A DNA stretch of 64,000 nt from a virus (lineage: Duplodnaviria; Caudoviricetes), in IMG/VR virus record IMGVR_UViG_3300005330_000014, positions 96,001 through 160,000 of that record, one strand, 5' to 3'. The translations under genes and the position numbers were made by a program. The notes under the pieces were generated by a model that worked only from the letters and a program-made list of their open reading frames with translations, searched no databases and was not told the DNA's origin. How positions within the stretch are numbered: position 1 is the first letter of the stretch; each line of letters begins with the position of its first letter. Below, one piece after another: positions 9,980 through 17,231 of this stretch.

Positions 9980-11482
9980 TTATTTTAGATAAGTTTCAGC
10001 TTGATTTTGACTTTCTAGGAGTGAGCGGATTTCAGAAAGTGTCCAATCTTTTAGTAATTGACTATTCAAAAAAGTAGGAATGAATTCACAATTTAATACT
10101 TCATCCCAACTTACCTGATCTTTTTGGTAATAAACTCCATCTTTATCTTTATAAACTGCAATTAGTCCTTTAGCAGACTTTTTAAGATTACCTTGATCTG
10201 TTTTTGGGTCTTTAAATATTTCTCTGCCTTCTCCGTTAACTTCGACATAAGTACTTTTTACCGCCCATCCGTCCGTATCTCGGCTAATACCATATACCAG
10301 ATAATAACTACCAATTCCGTACACAATATTTGTACTAGCAAATCCCTTCTTTTTTAATCCTTCACAAATTTTATTAAGAACGTCCCAATTAACGCCATCA
10401 CCAAGAATGGCACCGACTTTAGGATTTAATTCTTTGTATCCTTTAGCGTTAACAGTCCCGCCAAAAATTTCCCATAATCTTTCAATAGTTCCTTTATTTT
10501 CAACGCTACCTTCAGGAGCATCAGGATCACCAATAATAATTTTAACATTATCCCCGCTATCAGGACGAAAAACAGTTTTTCCATCACGGGCTAGAATTTT
10601 ATCTTTTAAAGTAATTGTAAATTCATTAATTACTCTCCAATAATCCCGGGTATCACTGACTATACTAACAATACCACGAGGATAAACGTCTTCAATTAGG
10701 CGACGGAACGCTTCGATTTCATTTTCGGGGCCGTAAGAAGCCATTACTGCGTGCTCACTTGCATTAACCGAACAAGATACTAATTCTTGATCCGAATTAG
10801 CATTATAATACTCTTCCATAAACTCAACGCCGGGCACCGTATCAGAGCCAACGAAGGAAGTGATAAATCCCGCGTCAATTAAAATTGCCGCTTCATGCCC
10901 AACACAACCACGATAAGAAAAGTTATGTCCTTGAAATTTAACGAAATCAGTATTTCCTACCGTTTCCATTGCGTATTTACTTAACAAGTCTTTAATTTGT
11001 TTTGCAGTGGTTGCGGCGGTAGATATAGGCCAAATATTGCAAGACATAATAGTTTCAACATATGCTTGAAGCCAGCCGAAATCTTTATGAGTAGTAAAAT
11101 ATATCAATGGAGCTACTTTATAAGGGACAAGGCTTCCCTCCGGTAAACAAAAGAATGCTAGCGGCAAATAACCTAAATCATGCAAGGCGGCAATATGCTC
11201 CACCCCTACATCATTCGGTCCAAGATAGTTATTAATACGACGAGTGAATCTCTGAACTACTTCTTCTTTAGGTTTTTGGAAGAAATTTTCATTCCATTGT
11301 TTAATTAAAAATTCTTTGAAGAAATATTGTGCTCCCACCCAGACGACGCCACTTTTAGGCGTAATTTGTCGATAAGATTTGCGCGGCGTCATGTTACCGA
11401 AAGCCAATGTCATCCCCGGTATAAATTGCCGTCTATGACCAATTTTATAAGCGTCGATTGTAGTTTCTGGTGTTATTTTCAT
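9980..11482 (-). CDS. nadV: nicotinamide phosphoribosyltransferase-like protein (NAMPT; possibly Namat of NARP1)
   Basis: DAYK, HNFSYRG, ASEHAVM, SIVSDT, VFRPDSG, ILGDGV, FKDPKTD, KKSAKG motifs; likely start ATG 11482 (track extends to 11533). Confidence 0.92.
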   Translation of the reverse strand: MKITPETTIDAYKIGHRRQFIPGMTLAFGNMTPRKSYRQITPKSGVVWVGAQYFFKEFLIKQWNENFFQKPKEEVVQRFTRRINNYLGPNDVGVEHIAALHDLGYLPLAFFCLPEGSLVPYKVAPLIYFTTHKDFGWLQAYVETIMSCNIWPISTAATTAKQIKDLLSKYAMETVGNTDFVKFQGHNFSYRGCVGHEAAILIDAGFITSFVGSDTVPGVEFMEEYYNANSDQELVSCSVNASEHAVMASYGPENEIEAFRRLIEDVYPRGIVSIVSDTRDYWRVINEFTITLKDKILARDGKTVFRPDSGDNVKIIIGDPDAPEGSVENKGTIERLWEIFGGTVNAKGYKELNPKVGAILGDGVNWDVLNKICEGLKKKGFASTNIVYGIGSYYLVYGISRDTDGWAVKSTYVEVNGEGREIFKDPKTDQGNLKKSAKGLIAVYKDKDGVYYQKDQVSWDEVLNCEFIPTFLNSQLLKDWTLSEIRSLLESQNQAETYLK

Positions 11483-11490
11483 ATTATTAT

Positions 11491-11562
11491 TTATTTTGTT
11501 ATTTGTTGATGTTTTGAAAATGTGCCGCGCCAAAAGTAAACGTGAGAATTGGTGATTTTCAT
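11491..11562 (-). pseudogene. probable N-terminal remnant of a NADAR gene (23 aa)
   Basis: MKITNSHVYFWRGTFS resembles the NADAR start (xxTxxxVyFWxgxFS); stops after 23 codons. Confidence 0.4.
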
Positions 11563-11565
11563 AAT

Positions 11566-12468
11566 TTAAATCTTTTCTCCGATAACCTGTTGGATTGTAG
11601 TATCCAAACTAAAAGTAATATTTTTCATTAATTTAGGCGCGCGGAGTTCTGTTTGAATCAATACATCATTTTTGCGCGGATACTCTGGATGAATTGCTAC
11701 ATGAATATTTTTCTCCCCTTTATTACATTGTTCTAATAACGTTCCATATTCAAGTAGGGTAATTGGGGCAACGGTTTCGTGGCTAAAATAAAATAGTATA
11801 TTCTCGCACAGTTCTAAGTGCTTATATTCCCACGCAATTTGTTCTCTTTCTACGTTTGGATCAGTAACATCAAAATTAGCCCGACGAGGGTTGGCTATAT
11901 TAAAAAATGGAAGTAATTTAGTTGCCGCTTCTGTTTGCCAATTATGCGCTCCACTAATTGAACCAGCAAGAAATAACCATTCATTATGAGGAAAAAATCC
12001 ATATCCATAAAAACACTCTGGAGCTTCTAGATAAATATGATTATTCCGTTCCCCCTTGATCAAAGTAATTGCTTCTTTTAAAATTTCATAACTTTCTGAT
12101 AACCCACTCTTATCGTCCAAAAGAAGATTATAGTAAAGTTTAGCCCCCGGGCCATAGTCAATTCCGGGGATATTTTCATTGATATATTCAACTTTAATAC
12201 CTACCAATTGAAAGAATGCATAAATGAAACGATATCTTTCAATCCGCGAGCAAGTATAAGGAATAACATAAAATCCTAATTCGTTGCATTCTCTTAAAAT
12301 GTCTAAAATCTTATTATGGGTAGTTCCGCAACCCTCTGGGTATTCGCTAACTGTGCAGTCGAAATCCACGGCTATAATCAATTTCTTATGTTTTTTATAA
12401 GTCTCAAATAATTTGTTGACGCAATTAGCACGGTCGAAATAAGGATCGGATTGAGTAGTCAGTTTCAT
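11566..12468 (-). CDS. fusion of HAD-family hydrolase and nucleoside 2-deoxyribosyltransferase-like domain
   Basis: N-terminal IIAVDFDCTV and LLLDDK (HAD); C-terminal FLAGSI..NWQ, NPRR, QIAWE..HLE, PITLLEYG (Nuc_deoxyri_tr2-like). Confidence 0.78.
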   Translation of the reverse strand: MKLTTQSDPYFDRANCVNKLFETYKKHKKLIIAVDFDCTVSEYPEGCGTTHNKILDILRECNELGFYVIPYTCSRIERYRFIYAFFQLVGIKVEYINENIPGIDYGPGAKLYYNLLLDDKSGLSESYEILKEAITLIKGERNNHIYLEAPECFYGYGFFPHNEWLFLAGSISGAHNWQTEAATKLLPFFNIANPRRANFDVTDPNVEREQIAWEYKHLELCENILFYFSHETVAPITLLEYGTLLEQCNKGEKNIHVAIHPEYPRKNDVLIQTELRAPKLMKNITFSLDTTIQQVIGEKI

Positions 12469-12476
12469 GAATTAGT

Positions 12477-12905
12477 TTATTTAAAATCTTTCAATCGGGC
12501 AGCGGCTTCTTCTTCTGTTTTAAATCCGGTAAAATTTATAACTCTGTCGCTCAATCCAAAGCTTACTTCTAGAACATACTCTTGGGCTTGCGGGTTATAA
12601 AACATTTGGTTATTATATTTTTTAGCTAATTCGGCATTGAATTTTTTAAACTCTTTTTCTCGCGGATTAGGTTTTAGTTGTTTAAACTGAAAGAAATAGC
12701 CGTTTTTATTTTTACCAGATTTCACGCCATAAGAAGCCTGAGTTAATAACTTTTTACTGTAGGGATTTAAATCATCTAAATATATCAAAATTTCAGGGAG
12801 AAATCTAAGTAAACTTAACGAGTCAATTTGTTCATCACCAAACTTCATTGATTTGGCTATGGAACGTAAAATTTCTTCGCGGGTATAAGTTTTTTTCTTT
12901 GTCAT
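12477..12905 (-). CDS. hypothetical protein, possible C-terminal AP2-like DNA-binding element
   Basis: ends with GFKTEEEAAARL. Confidence 0.55.
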   Translation of the reverse strand: MTKKKTYTREEILRSIAKSMKFGDEQIDSLSLLRFLPEILIYLDDLNPYSKKLLTQASYGVKSGKNKNGYFFQFKQLKPNPREKEFKKFNAELAKKYNNQMFYNPQAQEYVLEVSFGLSDRVINFTGFKTEEEAAARLKDFK

Positions 12906-12909
12906 AAAA

Positions 12910-13773
12910 TCAAGCCACTTTAATCACATGAATTTTGTCTTGCGGGTAAGGATAAGGTAATTCTTGGAATGAATTAGTAGTATAAACTTCATCAATTACT
13001 TCAAGTATATCTTTATAACCCTTGGAAAAAATCCCGTGGGTAACATACAAAATAATCCGCCCGGCGTTCTTTTTCTTTAATACTTTTGCTAGTTCGATAA
13101 ACGTCCTAGCCCCGTCAGCAATGTCGTCGAGAATTACAACTGTTTGATAATTCAAATCATCTACATAAACAATTGTTTCAATAATTTTACCCGTTTGTAA
13201 TTCTCTTAACTTATCCGCGCGGATAAAGTGATCATGCCCAAAATGCGCGGCAATATCATGGATTTTTTTATTAGCTCCAACATCAGGAGAAATTAAAAGA
13301 CACTGTTTATTAAGTAAAAGCTTATAAAGTTCGTTTTCACGGTCATAAATTAGATTTTTAAGAATATCCAACCGTTTTACTTCCTTAAGATTATTAATTA
13401 CTGCATTAGTAACTTCCGAGTGGCAATCAAAAGTAGTAACGGACTCAAAGTTTAGAAAGTTTAAGTAATCAGCGAATACTTTTAAACTAAGACTTTCCCC
13501 CGGATTATGAGCTTTATCCTGCCGCCCATAAGGAATATAAGGTAAAATAAGATGAATGGGGACTTTTTTAACTCTTAAAATTGCATCGCGCATTAAAGCC
13601 AATGTAAATAAATCATTAGAATTTTGAATCCGCGCGGTTATATAAACTCCATCACGCCAAAAATAAGTACTTTTAATTGATTCTTCGTTTAATTGAATAC
13701 CAATTTCGCCGCCGGGGAATAACCATTGTTTAAAACCTAACTCTAGTCTTCCATTGTTAGTAGTAATTTTCAT
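12910..13773 (-). CDS. prs: ribose-phosphate pyrophosphokinase-like protein (possibly Adps of NARP1)
   Basis: FPGGEI, PYIPYGRQDK, DCHS, ISPDVGA, VILDDIADGARTF, YVTHGIFS motifs; likely start ATG 13773. Confidence 0.9.
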   Translation of the reverse strand: MKITTNNGRLELGFKQWLFPGGEIGIQLNEESIKSTYFWRDGVYITARIQNSNDLFTLALMRDAILRVKKVPIHLILPYIPYGRQDKAHNPGESLSLKVFADYLNFLNFESVTTFDCHSEVTNAVINNLKEVKRLDILKNLIYDRENELYKLLLNKQCLLISPDVGANKKIHDIAAHFGHDHFIRADKLRELQTGKIIETIVYVDDLNYQTVVILDDIADGARTFIELAKVLKKKNAGRIILYVTHGIFSKGYKDILEVIDEVYTTNSFQELPYPYPQDKIHVIKVA

Positions 13774-13777
13774 ATTA

Positions 13778-13927
13778 TTAATTATTTTCTTTATCAATTA
13801 ACTTTTCAATTATATCCTGCTTTTTATTAGGAATAACTCTATTGGGCGGGATTTTTTGTCCACGCCCTTTGACCCGGCGGATACGTTTAATTGTATCTTT
13901 TCTTTTTTGTTTATCCGCGCGGTTCAT
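13778..13927 (-). CDS. small basic protein (49 aa, not in ORF track)
   Basis: MNRADKQKRKDTIKRIRRVKGRG...DKENN fills the gap exactly. Confidence 0.55.
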   Translation of the reverse strand: MNRADKQKRKDTIKRIRRVKGRGQKIPPNRVIPNKKQDIIEKLIDKENN

Positions 13928-13955: not shown

Positions 13956-14669
13956 TTAAGCAACCATTTGCTTTACTTCTTCCAAAAATCTTTGGCTCAA
14001 TGCGTTAGTTTTATAAATCGCTTCGGGGTGCCATTGAACAAAATTAGCTCTGTGGTTTTCATTTTTAATCCATTCAATAATTTTAGGCAGTTTAAGGTCT
14101 TCTCCTAATAAAGCTGTACCTACAATTTCAACCCCATTAGGTAAATGATGTAACTCGCGTGTTAACGGGCGCAAAATACCCATATGGTGCGCGCTATTTA
14201 CGAAATAGTCTTCATGATCGACTTCCACGTAATGGCAAAATTCAGCTTCATCATCTTCTAGTTTAATCCCGGCCCCGCTAGGAGAATGACAAACCGTACT
14301 ACCGCCATAATTAATATCAGTTAGTGTCAATTTAAGGAAGTGAGAACAATATAATTGGAAATTACGACAAACGCCCGCGATTGGTTTGCCCAATTCAATG
14401 AACTTATTCATTAAGTAAATTTCACGAATGTCACGCTTACGATCAAAATTGTCCATATTTTCACATTTTAATAGTGGGCTGCCGTAAGTAGCGGGAAAAA
14501 TATCTCGTCCACCGCCGCCAAAATAAATATCCGCCCGCTCTGCCCAATAATCTAAATTGGCAGTATCGTCGTGAGTTACATATACATAATTCCAACCGAA
14601 ATACTTTTCAAGCATTTCATGAATATGTTTAGTGAAAATAGATGGACCGGTAGTTAGAGCGAGAGGCAT
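13956..14669 (-). CDS. class I glutamine amidotransferase / peptidase C26 (PuuD-like)
   Basis: GGGRDI, GVCRNFQ (catalytic Cys), VNSAHH, QWHPE (His-x-Glu). Confidence 0.88.
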   Translation of the reverse strand: MPLALTTGPSIFTKHIHEMLEKYFGWNYVYVTHDDTANLDYWAERADIYFGGGGRDIFPATYGSPLLKCENMDNFDRKRDIREIYLMNKFIELGKPIAGVCRNFQLYCSHFLKLTLTDINYGGSTVCHSPSGAGIKLEDDEAEFCHYVEVDHEDYFVNSAHHMGILRPLTRELHHLPNGVEIVGTALLGEDLKLPKIIEWIKNENHRANFVQWHPEAIYKTNALSQRFLEEVKQMVA

Positions 14670-15751: not shown

Positions 15752-16147
15752 TTAGTTGAAATTGATTTCTTGGAACTCCCCATTTTTGTCTGTAGCAAAT
15801 ACTCTTTTAAAGTTTAACGAAGTAATAACACGGGCACAGAACTTGCATGGACTTGAAGTATTAATTTTTTCATTTCTATCTACTCTAACGACAGCCATTG
15901 TATAACCCGTGTAATCTTCTCTACGGCCACGCAATATTGCCATCAATTCAGCATGACAACCGCAATCTTCATAATAATTATATTCTATATTTTTAGGATG
16001 GCTTTGTTTCTTATTATGAGCCAGAGAAATCATTTTCCTCTTATTATAAATTGCGGCTACGTGGAAACAACGGCTATCCCCACGCATTTCGGGAGCTAAA
16101 GCTAATGCAATTTCTTTAAGTTTTTCAAGATTTTTAGGAGAATTCAT
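15752..16147 (-). CDS. zinc-dependent cytidine/dCMP deaminase-like protein
   Basis: HAE and SSPCKFC zinc motifs. Confidence 0.8.
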   Translation of the reverse strand: MNSPKNLEKLKEIALALAPEMRGDSRCFHVAAIYNKRKMISLAHNKKQSHPKNIEYNYYEDCGCHAELMAILRGRREDYTGYTMAVVRVDRNEKINTSSPCKFCARVITSLNFKRVFATDKNGEFQEINFN

Positions 16148-16184: not shown

Positions 16185-17231
16185 ATGATAATATATACCA
16201 AAGAATTAGCAAATCAACTTGTAGAGCTACAGAAAAATGTATCTTTTAAGGAAGCAAGAAAAATTTTAAATATCAGTTACTATCAAGCTAGGAAATTATT
16301 AATAAAATTTGGATTTAAAACCGTTCAAAAAAATAAGCCTTTAATCCCCATTCAAGAAAATTACTTTGAAATTATTGATACCGAAGATAAAGCTTATTTT
16401 TTGGGATTTATAGGGGCAGATGGGTGTATTAATGATAAACACGCTTTATCTATTCACTTACAAAAAGACGATCAGATTATTCTAAAGCAGTTTTTGCATT
16501 ATACAAATAGCCAACATACTATTAAATTCGGAAAAACTAAGAACACAACCAGTTCTTTTCCTGATTTTTTTGAGTGGGCTATGATTTATATCTCTAGGAA
16601 AAATTTCGTACAACATTTATTACAATTGAATATTACCCCTCGTAAGAGTCTCACATTAATTCCTCCGCCAGAAAATAGCATTCCCAATCATTTAATGCAT
16701 CACTTTATAAGAGGTTACTTCGATGGAGATGGCGGGGCTTATTTCAATAGTAACAGTAAAAACATTAAAGGCAAAACTTTATATCAATTTAATGGCTCTT
16801 TCACGGGAACCAAGGAAATGTTAACTTATATTGAGTCGTATTTACATCAACAAGAAATAAAAACTTCTTGGACCAAAAGAATGAAAGATAATTCAAACAA
16901 TTATACTTTATTGATACATGGTAATATACAGGGAACTAAACTATACGAATATATGTATCAAAATCATACAATATGTTTAGACCGTAAATTAATTCTATTT
17001 AAAAAATGTAAAGATATAGCAGAATCAGTTATTAACAATAGAACAAGTAAATATAGATTTATTACAAAATATCCTTCCATTAAGTCTCCTTGGTCTTATC
17101 AATTTAAAATTAATAAAAAGAAATATAGCGGATATGGAGCAACCGAAGAAGAATGCAAAAAGAATCTTAATGCAAAGTATTTGGAAATATCTGGAATAAA
17201 TTTAGGAGAGGGGCTGCGTAGCTTAATTTAA
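16185..17231 (+). mobile_element. free-standing LAGLIDADG homing endonuclease
   Basis: two motifs FLGFIGADG and FIRGYFDGDG; AP2-like C-terminus; only long plus-strand gene in the minus-strand arm. Confidence 0.9.

Follow-up and report, generated by a model that had tools for sequence, protein, structure and literature searches.

A predicted HAD phosphatase–NDT-like N-glycosidase fusion encoded within a NARP1-type NAD+ reconstitution operon of a phage

We analyzed a window of 64,000 nucleotides from a virus of the class Caudoviricetes (IMG/VR record IMGVR_UViG_3300005330_000014), which corresponds to positions 96001 to 160000 of a 208,233-bp record estimated to be 95% complete. The minus strand of this window carries, at positions 11566–12468, a single uninterrupted open reading frame (ORF) of 300 amino acids in which a HAD-type phosphatase domain is joined to a domain resembling nucleoside deoxyribosyltransferases (NDTs). 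This gene encodes a genuine bifunctional enzyme, with activities predicted from sequence, and shares a transcript with the genes for both core enzymes of the NARP1 pathway for NAD+ reconstitution. We consider it highly probable that the fusion protein assists phage NAD+ reconstitution as an accessory enzyme. More tentatively, we propose that it turns non-standard NAD+ debris, with phosphorylated ADP-ribose and N-linked ADP-ribose conjugates or signals as the candidate substrates, into plain ADP-ribose.

Results

The fusion joins a capless HAD domain to an NDT-like domain

The operon consists of four co-directional genes that encode an Adps-like protein, an ORFan, the fusion, and a Namat-like protein, separated by gaps of 4, 8, and 32 bp. 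Its features are as follows, with the two domains of the fusion given separately.

12910–13797, minus strand: Adps-like protein (PRS family), 295 amino acids, first gene of the operon (phrog_619, 4.6e-76; TIGR01251, 1.6e-37)
12477–12905, minus strand: ORFan of 142 amino acids between the Adps-like gene and the fusion, no family match
12049–12444, minus strand: predicted HAD phosphatase domain of the fusion, residues 9–140 (phrog_1238, motifs, 2obb fold)
11569–12033, minus strand: predicted PF15891 NDT/DNPH1-like N-glycosidase domain of the fusion, residues 146–300 (PF15891, 4mcj fold)
9980–11533, minus strand: Namat-like protein (NAMPT family), ORF of 517 amino acids from a TTG codon (phrog_448, 1.6e-169)

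The N-terminal half of the fusion (residues 9–139) matches phrog_1238 with an E value of 1.6e-15, and the label of that family, phosphoheptose isomerase, is misleading for this domain. HAD motif I reads D35-F-D37-C-T39, the motif III lysine is K110, and the acidic pair of motif IV is D118-D119. All 26 relatives keep D35, D37, and K110, and T39 and D119 are each found in 25 of them; T72 and S74, in the sequence YTCS, are candidates for the Ser/Thr of motif II at the end of strand 2, in a column that is less than 85% conserved among relatives. None of the Pfam HAD models matched the N-half, and the NCBIfam model BT0820 gave only a weak hit (E value of 0.083). The fold of this half resembles that of BT_0820 (2obb), with a Foldseek TMt of 0.68 and a VIA Z score of 10.7 over residues 28–139. 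We classify the N-half as a capless HAD phosphatase of the BT0820/phrog_1238 type with predicted phosphomonoesterase activity.

The C-terminal half matches the Pfam family PF15891 (Nuc_deoxyri_tr2) over residues 165–247 (E value of 6.3e-15; 55.8 bits against a curated cut-off of 30). Its closest fold match is 4mcj (Z 18.6), followed by YtoQ, Rcl/DNPH1 (11.7), NDT (7o62; 11.6), MilB (11.1), and TIR domains (about 9–10). No functional information on YtoQ was found in the literature. When the PDB was searched with a profile built from the C-half alignment, 4mcj alone was recovered (E value of 4.6e-18), and DNPH1, MilB, and NDT were not found. The conserved residues are F166, W177-Q178, N193-P194-R195-R196, W213-E214, E240, Y263, R265, and Q272. 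In the NDT/DNPH1 superfamily the catalytic nucleophile is a glutamate after strand 4. The putative catalytic residue of the fusion is E240, within ITLLEYG, a candidate counterpart of E104 of DNPH1; 34 of 35 relatives retain it, and the segment lines up with ITLLEMG of 4mcj. For both domains of the fusion, the match scores are far above the chance level, and an AlphaFold2 model of the whole protein made from a 60-row alignment has a mean predicted local distance difference test score of 92.7 and a predicted template modeling score of 0.74.

Residue F166 is invariant in all 36 sequences and aligns with a tyrosine of the PF05014-type paralog encoded by the same genome, in a weak profile alignment (probability 43%, E value of 2.4e-4). 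As far as the accessible part of a study of related enzymes goes (PMC10603095), the tyrosine after strand 1 (Y24 of DNPH1) accompanies a preference for deoxyribose, classical NDT and DNPH1 enzymes use deoxy substrates, and phenylalanine at the equivalent position (F17 of MilB) accompanies ribose rather than deoxyribose substrates in MilB. Because phenylalanine stands at the position of this deoxyribose-linked tyrosine in the weak alignment, we did not assign the C-half to the strict nucleoside 2′-deoxyribosyltransferases or deoxynucleoside monophosphate hydrolases. The invariant phenylalanine would instead fit a ribose substrate, insofar as so weak an alignment can be trusted, and we classify the C-half as a ribosyl N-glycosidase of the NDT/DNPH1 type, with activity predicted. 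The PF05014-type paralog (179 amino acids, with the motif CYLAG) is a second NDT gene located elsewhere in the genome. It belongs to a run of three consecutive genes located about 60 kb away from the NARP1 operon (L084, 6852–8354; G000:C1:172851–174353), together with a macro-domain gene (158 amino acids) and a gene for an RF-1/ArfB-like protein (126 amino acids) that carries a GGQ motif.

The original prediction had proposed, from a DFD motif and from the glutamate in ITLLEYG, that the protein is a HAD phosphatase fused to an NDT-like domain, and that the fusion lies inside an NAD module. Each of these proposals is borne out by the family matches, by the invariant or nearly invariant residues, and by the same-strand PRS-like and NAMPT-like genes at short distances. 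The structural comparison that it had suggested resolves the halves as HAD (2obb) and NDT-like (4mcj) folds, and the C-half also shows the resemblance to TIR domains.

The surrounding operon is of the NARP1 type

In NARP1, Adps makes ADP-ribose (ADPR)-pyrophosphate from ADP-ribose and ATP, and Namat joins ADPR-pyrophosphate to nicotinamide; the pathway does not require NMNAT, the enzyme that separates NARP2 from NARP1. The Namat-like protein scores 453 bits against the solved structure 9W5W/9W5X, identified in the available portion of its source as Namat of phage SPbetaL1 (PMC12774641), versus about 181 bits against canonical NAMPTs. Its helix motif, GSYYLVYGISRD, carries Tyr at the two positions and departs from the published consensus GSXoXoXoTRD by a single additional residue and a Ser in place of Thr. 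Translation of this protein probably begins at the ATG codon of residue 18 (window position 11482) rather than at the TTG codon.

Residues 26–274 of the Adps-like protein align to residues 35–273 of the Escherichia coli PRS chain 4s2u, and the tail after the match is about 21 residues long versus about 43 in PRS. The Adps signature, as given in the accessible text of PMC13586617, is a PRS-family protein that lacks the C-terminal α11–α12 module. The short C terminus fits this signature in a comparison made with PRS rather than with a solved Adps.

A search for NMNAT (PF01467) found none in the 208-kb, 95%-complete genome, and a control search was positive in 14 of 14 genomes. Because similarity to Namat is far higher than to canonical NAMPTs and because the genome lacks NMNAT, we rejected the classical combination of PRS and NAMPT, which operates through phosphoribosyl pyrophosphate (PRPP). 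The operon is of the NARP1 type (Adps plus Namat), with enzymatic function predicted. The salvage pair of the original prediction was thus correctly placed in the NAMPT and PRS families, and its members are Adps and Namat rather than classical PRS and NAMPT.

The ORFan of 142 residues has no match in Pfam, PHROG, or NCBIfam, its sole database match is itself, and it has no relative in 80 loci that encode relatives of the C-half.

Relatives of the NDT-like domain recur in three NAD-salvage operon designs

A scan of viral contigs with the single protein returned no relative. An alignment-based scan was needed to find relatives of the C-half, and we examined 80 loci (the best of 111) for neighboring genes within 8 kb. 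By tblastn, 22 of these loci have a NAMPT-family gene and 24 have a PRS-family gene. When queries for NMNAT, nicotinamidase, and NAPRT were added, 32 of the 80 had at least one NAD-salvage gene. These NAD-linked loci fall into three operon designs, designated types A, B, and C.

In type A, which is NARP1-like (L001–L005 and L009), all six loci have the NDT-like gene placed between those for the Adps-like and Namat-like proteins, often with an overlap onto the end of the Adps-like gene. Type B is the commonest (about 15 loci) and encodes an NMNAT-Nudix protein, a canonical NAMPT whose sequence at the site of the Namat motif is GMGGGLLQK...RD, a PRS of full length, and a HAD protein, then the NDT-like protein; in eight loci a gene for a calcineurin-like phosphoesterase lies directly downstream of the NDT-like gene. 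Type C comprises L056, L060, L063, L065, L074, and the cultured Sinorhizobium phage Phosso, and it encodes NAPRT, Nudix, NMNAT, and nicotinamidase (the last not in L063), followed by the NDT-like gene. In types A and B the NDT-like gene comes immediately behind the PRS/Adps gene; in L056 and L060 its immediate predecessor is the nicotinamidase gene, and in Phosso a hypothetical gene of 148 amino acids intervenes between it and the nicotinamidase gene. All three types encode an enzyme that consumes ADP-ribose, either Adps or Nudix, and ADP-ribose is therefore a substrate that the three contexts could share.

In a quick maximum-likelihood tree of the C-half, the type A copies and the domain from the window form one group of seven rows (support 86), and the type B copies make up a clade of their own with 14 rows (support 99). 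When context labels were shuffled, the observed clustering was reached in 0 of 200 shuffles. The PF15891-type family as a whole is not NAD-specific because 48 of the 80 loci have no NAD gene within 8 kb, some of them among tail or replication genes, but the clade that includes the domain from the window is NAD-specific. Bacterial and archaeal genomes yielded only four loci with a C-half relative, none of them with NAD genes, and the C-half clade is essentially viral.

The 48 loci without NAD genes would be accommodated by a role in general nucleotide catabolism, in which the enzyme is not specific to NAD+ and provides, for example, ribose-5-phosphate or bases for PRPP synthesis or balances nucleotide pools, with NAD genes as neighbors through the clustering of auxiliary metabolic genes. 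Such a role would also be in keeping with the second, PF05014-type NDT gene in the genome and with the position of NDT-like genes immediately behind genes of the PRS family, which uses ribose-5-phosphate as its substrate. Nevertheless, we judge it quite unlikely. The NDT-like gene is inserted between the Adps-like and Namat-like genes in every NARP1-type locus, the NAD-linked copies cluster on the tree, most loci of the HAD domain hold both NAD gene families (see below), and a phosphatase acting on ribose-5-phosphate would oppose PRS.

The HAD domain is a frequent neighbor of PRS-family and NAMPT-family genes

We surveyed 80 viral loci with relatives of the N-half (the best of 273) and found a NAMPT-family gene in 58, a PRS-family gene in 61, and both in 56 (70%). 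The HAD gene usually sits between the other two, an arrangement that is also annotated in Bacillus phage BPS13 and in the crAss-like phage cr126_1. With the fusion of L001 lying between a PRS-like and a NAMPT-like gene, with NAD-salvage genes at 32 of 80 C-half loci, and with both families at 56 of 80 N-half loci, the linkage to NAMPT and PRS on which the original prediction had staked its inference holds in other genomes. In six HAD loci without NAD genes (L210, L211, L221, L228, L229, and L234), the HAD gene directly follows a calcineurin-like phosphoesterase gene, and this is a second recurrent pairing of the HAD family.

Among 80 loci with Namat-like genes (L089–L168, the best of at least 555), a PRS-like gene is present in 76, a HAD gene in 12, and an NDT-like gene in four. 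NADAR genes, which encode ADP-ribosyl glycohydrolases, are found beside Namat in four of the 80. Additional recurrent neighbors of Namat/Adps genes encode inorganic pyrophosphatase (four loci), ATP-dependent DNA ligase (six loci), RNA ligases, SPFH proteins, and calcineurin-like phosphoesterases.

The NDT-like domain is repeatedly coupled to phosphoesterases

In 12 loci the NDT-like gene is immediately preceded by the HAD gene; the two touch or are 10 bp or less apart in 11 of these and are 110 bp apart in one. Seven proteins are HAD–NDT fusions, namely that of the window, that of L001, and five further database proteins. They are only 30–69% identical to one another, and so the fusion is either old or has arisen more than once. 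No phage record in INPHARED covered 80% of the fusion. The HAD proteins that adjoin the NDT-like gene in type B operons (L006 7680–8102, L011 7537–7998, and relatives) have the motif I sequence D-L-H-D-T, with His for the acid/base at Asp+2.

Other partners were also noted. A relative of the HAD domain, P0163, is fused to a RyR domain instead. A viral cluster of 63 proteins in the ESM Atlas seems to combine PF15891 with a calcineurin-like phosphoesterase, which we treat as a lead only since the phosphoesterase is recorded on no more than 11% of its members. L003 (6251–7158) is a NARP1 operon that has the NDT-like gene and lacks the HAD gene, and in the place expected for the latter, just upstream of its Adps gene, are a macro-like gene (a weak match to YmdB, E value of 0.013) and a gene for a DSP/PTP-type phosphatase (HCxxGxxRS). 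The RyR swap in P0163, the macro-like and DSP genes of L003, and the NADAR neighbors point to ADP-ribose chemistry, as far as sequence family can indicate. A PHROG scan of the HAD fusion partners yielded nothing on function. Co-folding of the separate HAD and NDT-like proteins of L011 gave a score of 0.00, which is no verdict and was used neither for nor against binding.

The simplest rationale for joining a phosphatase to a glycosidase is that a nucleosidase takes over the product of a nucleotidase, and this pairing is found repeatedly, with phosphoesterases of two unrelated folds. Accordingly, the enzyme could recycle pyridine nucleotides, either with the HAD domain converting nicotinamide mononucleotide (NMN) to nicotinamide riboside and the NDT-like domain releasing nicotinamide from it, or with NMN being cut directly to nicotinamide and ribose-5-phosphate. 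The base would then supply Namat, NAMPT, or PncA, for example, after a split of NAD+ to NMN and AMP of the kind made by the Metis defense. In the accessible portion of the Metis study (10.1101/2025.11.05.686725), the effector splits NAD+ into NMN and AMP and thereby takes it beyond repair by NARP1, which cannot use NMN. The overlap with a nicotinamidase gene in type C, the direct succession of the two genes in L056 and L060, and the phenylalanine at the ribose/deoxyribose position, which fits a ribose substrate in the weak alignment, would agree with recycling. We regard it as unlikely, however. The type B operons already encode NAMPT and NMNAT-Nudix, such that NMN hydrolysis would constitute a futile cycle; NARP1 also needs ADP-ribose, of which the NMN route gives none; and in types A and B the NDT-like gene follows the PRS/Adps gene.

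The futile cycle would be avoided, and linkage to every kind of NAD-salvage operon explained, if the fusion destroyed a modified deoxynucleotide that triggers an NAD+-depleting defense. In the case of m6dAMP, the trigger of Metis, the phosphate would be taken off by the HAD domain and the base by the NDT-like domain. The same portion of the Metis study describes the host protein MisB as a HAD phosphatase that inactivates m6dAMP by dephosphorylation, and it states that the nucleoside and the free base do not activate MisA. The deoxy substrates of classical NDT and DNPH1 enzymes, reported in the part of the literature cited above, are in line with this scheme. We nonetheless find it very unlikely, as phenylalanine replaces the tyrosine linked to deoxyribose preference, and MisB belongs to another HAD subfamily (PF13419), whereas the HAD domain of the fusion matches no Pfam HAD model and resembles the capless BT0820. 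No phage anti-Metis enzyme was found reported in the portions of the literature that were searched.

Neighboring genes

The Peptidase_C26/GATase-like gene upstream of the operon (13956–14669, minus strand) was considered as a member of the module and dropped; it has no relative in the 80 related loci (L001–L080). A dCMP-deaminase-like gene (15752–16147, minus strand) also lies upstream. Amid minus-strand genes, an ORF of 348 amino acids on the plus strand (16185–17231) has two LAGLIDADG-like motifs that were recognized by eye (FIGADG and FDGDGG) and probably encodes a homing endonuclease. Endonuclease ORFs, GIY-YIG ones among them, also break up the NARP1 operons of L002 and L009.

Discussion

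We favor the delivery of ADP-ribose by both domains because this function fits every context in which they are found without creating a futile cycle. Both domains would act as funnels that convert breakdown products of NAD+ that are of no use to the core pathway into plain ADP-ribose. The HAD domain would strip the phosphate from phosphorylated ADP-ribose, for which ADPR-1″-phosphate from RES-type defenses and 2′-phospho-ADPR from NADP+ are candidates. It would thereby take the role of the unrelated macro-domain phosphatase Adpp, which is encoded in NARP1 operons and converts ADPR-1″-phosphate, a product of RES-type defense, to ADP-ribose (10.64898/2026.01.28.702374). In conjugates of ADP-ribose or cyclic signals, the NDT-like domain would break the linkage made through C1″ of the distal ribose, and its candidate substrates are canonical cyclic ADP-ribose (cADPR), N7-cADPR, and histidine-ADPR. 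This role would be analogous to that of the unrelated RyR-domain glycosidase RyDEP, which is encoded beside NARP1 of mycobacteriophage DyoEdafos and, in the available text of its description, converts 2′/3′cADPR to ADP-ribose (10.64898/2026.05.28.727677). As a result, the signal would be silenced and ADP-ribose handed back to Adps.

The original prediction had offered two ideas for the fusion, that it feeds the salvage pair by releasing nicotinamide or ADP-ribose or that it destroys ADPR-derived immune signals. With the pair being of the NARP1 type, ADP-ribose release or ADPR-signal destruction becomes the best-fitting idea, whereas release of nicotinamide from NMN is hard to reconcile with type B, the most frequent context, where NAMPT and NMNAT are both already present.

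A number of observations weigh against ADP-ribose delivery. The NDT-like gene of type C overlaps the end of the nicotinamidase gene, which points to nicotinamide rather than to ADP-ribose. The majority of C-half loci have no NAD gene nearby, with two sizeable groups among tail or replication genes, and the NDT-like gene is rare among Namat loci (4 of 80). The equivalence of the phenylalanine and tyrosine positions rests on the weak profile alignment described above, the genome has a macro-domain gene elsewhere, and every substrate named here is a guess. The fused homolog of L001 (8007–8894, in a 209-kb viral contig) has Gly for E240 (SLYGLG), and another fused homolog, P0042, has Thr for E214. 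The NDT-like domains of these two proteins may be inactive. As some fused homologs have lost key residues in this way, a binding-only sponge role is possible in some lineages, by analogy with that reported for RyDEP homologs. Finally, the NDT-like gene is paired with the HAD gene, with the calcineurin-like gene in eight loci, and possibly with a calcineurin-like domain in the fusion cluster. The recurrence of phosphoesterases as partners suggests that a single phosphorylated nucleotide is processed in two steps, and two funnels operating in parallel leave the pairing unexplained.

A bolder extension of ADP-ribose delivery is that the NDT-like domain represents the first known enzyme to cut N-glycosidic ADPR signals of Thoeris-type systems, and perhaps a true transferase, with the fused HAD domain handling phosphorylated ADP-ribose. 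We hold this to be doubtful. Thoeris systems are reported to use the N-linked signals canonical cADPR, N7-cADPR, and His-ADPR, and in the papers that were consulted no phage enzyme that degrades N-linked ADPR signals was found reported. In the transferase variant, a ribosyl-Glu intermediate would pass the ADP-ribosyl group directly to nicotinamide and yield NAD+ without ATP. If this extension is true, one protein would widen the reach of NARP1 against several defense chemistries together.

NAD+ depletion is among the commonest bacterial strategies against phages, and phage NAD+ reconstitution has gained two published add-ons in two years, Adpp and RyDEP. The locus described here adds two enzyme families, the capless HAD and the PF15891 NDT-like proteins, that are linked to three designs of NAD-salvage operon in many unrelated phages and are repeatedly fused. 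If either family acts on an NAD+ derivative made by a defense system, this would represent a new counter-defense activity and would point to defense products that are still to be matched with a phage enzyme.

The original prediction did not recall such a fusion from the literature, and full-text searches likewise found no description of it. These searches, whose reach excluded supplementary tables such as that of NARP1-associated genes, found no link of PF15891, of an NDT-like enzyme, or of this HAD family to NARP operons, and no paper that combines a NARP term with deoxyribosyltransferase. As judged from the listed results, no paper was found for PF15891 or Nuc_deoxyri_tr2, NARP1 with haloacid gave an unrelated use alone, and deoxyribosyltransferase with Thoeris and phage gave fold comparisons alone.

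Comparison with known systems

The closest solved structure for the C-half is BDI_0649 from Parabacteroides distasonis (4mcj), and that for the N-half is BT_0820 from Bacteroides thetaiotaomicron (2obb). Unlike the fusion, both are single-domain entries from structural genomics with titles that state no function. Among characterized enzymes, DNPH1/Rcl and MilB have a fold in common with the C-half and, in the accessible text on these enzymes (PMC10603095, PMC4081090), a glutamate in the nucleophile motif, of which E240 is the candidate counterpart; MilB also has phenylalanine at the F17/Y24 position, which matches F166 if the weak alignment discussed above holds. In contrast to these proteins, which gave no sequence match in the profile search, the fusion has the motifs WQ, NPRR, WE, and Y-x-R and resides in an NAD-salvage context.

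MisB of Metis is similarly a HAD phosphatase that takes part in an NAD+-centered conflict between phage and host. However, as presented in the available part of its source (10.1101/2025.11.05.686725), it is encoded by the host, belongs to PF13419, and acts on m6dAMP, and the HAD domain of the fusion falls outside all Pfam HAD models.

RyDEP is like the proposed role of the fusion in being a NARP1-linked glycosidase that converts ADPR-based immune signals to ADP-ribose for use by Adps and Namat, and the HAD domain of the fusion has the RyR-fused relative P0163. The two differ in fold (RyR R12 versus NDT/DNPH1) and in chemistry. As characterized in the accessible portion of its description (10.64898/2026.05.28.727677), RyDEP is an inverting His/Asp enzyme that acts on O-glycosidic ribose–ribose bonds, whereas the NDT family employs a glutamate nucleophile on N-glycosidic bonds. 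Membership in the RyDEP class is ruled out, as the RyR domain (PF02026) was not found in the genome.

The nearest precedent for the operon as a whole is NARP1-AP (Adps-Adpp-Namat), which was described by Osterman et al. in Vibrio phage Gary (10.64898/2026.01.28.702374). Both are NARP1 operons with an extra hydrolase between or beside Adps and Namat, and in both a phosphatase delivers ADP-ribose, as demonstrated for Adpp and as proposed here for the fusion. The operon is nevertheless not a NARP1-AP, as Pfam detects no macro domain in it and the only macro gene of the genome is about 60 kb away (172902–173240). Adpp is a Poa1p-like macro domain, whereas the phosphatase of the fusion is a capless HAD domain of unrelated fold with a candidate substrate, and NARP1-AP includes no fused glycosidase. 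The operon described here is a NARP operon with a probable new accessory enzyme.

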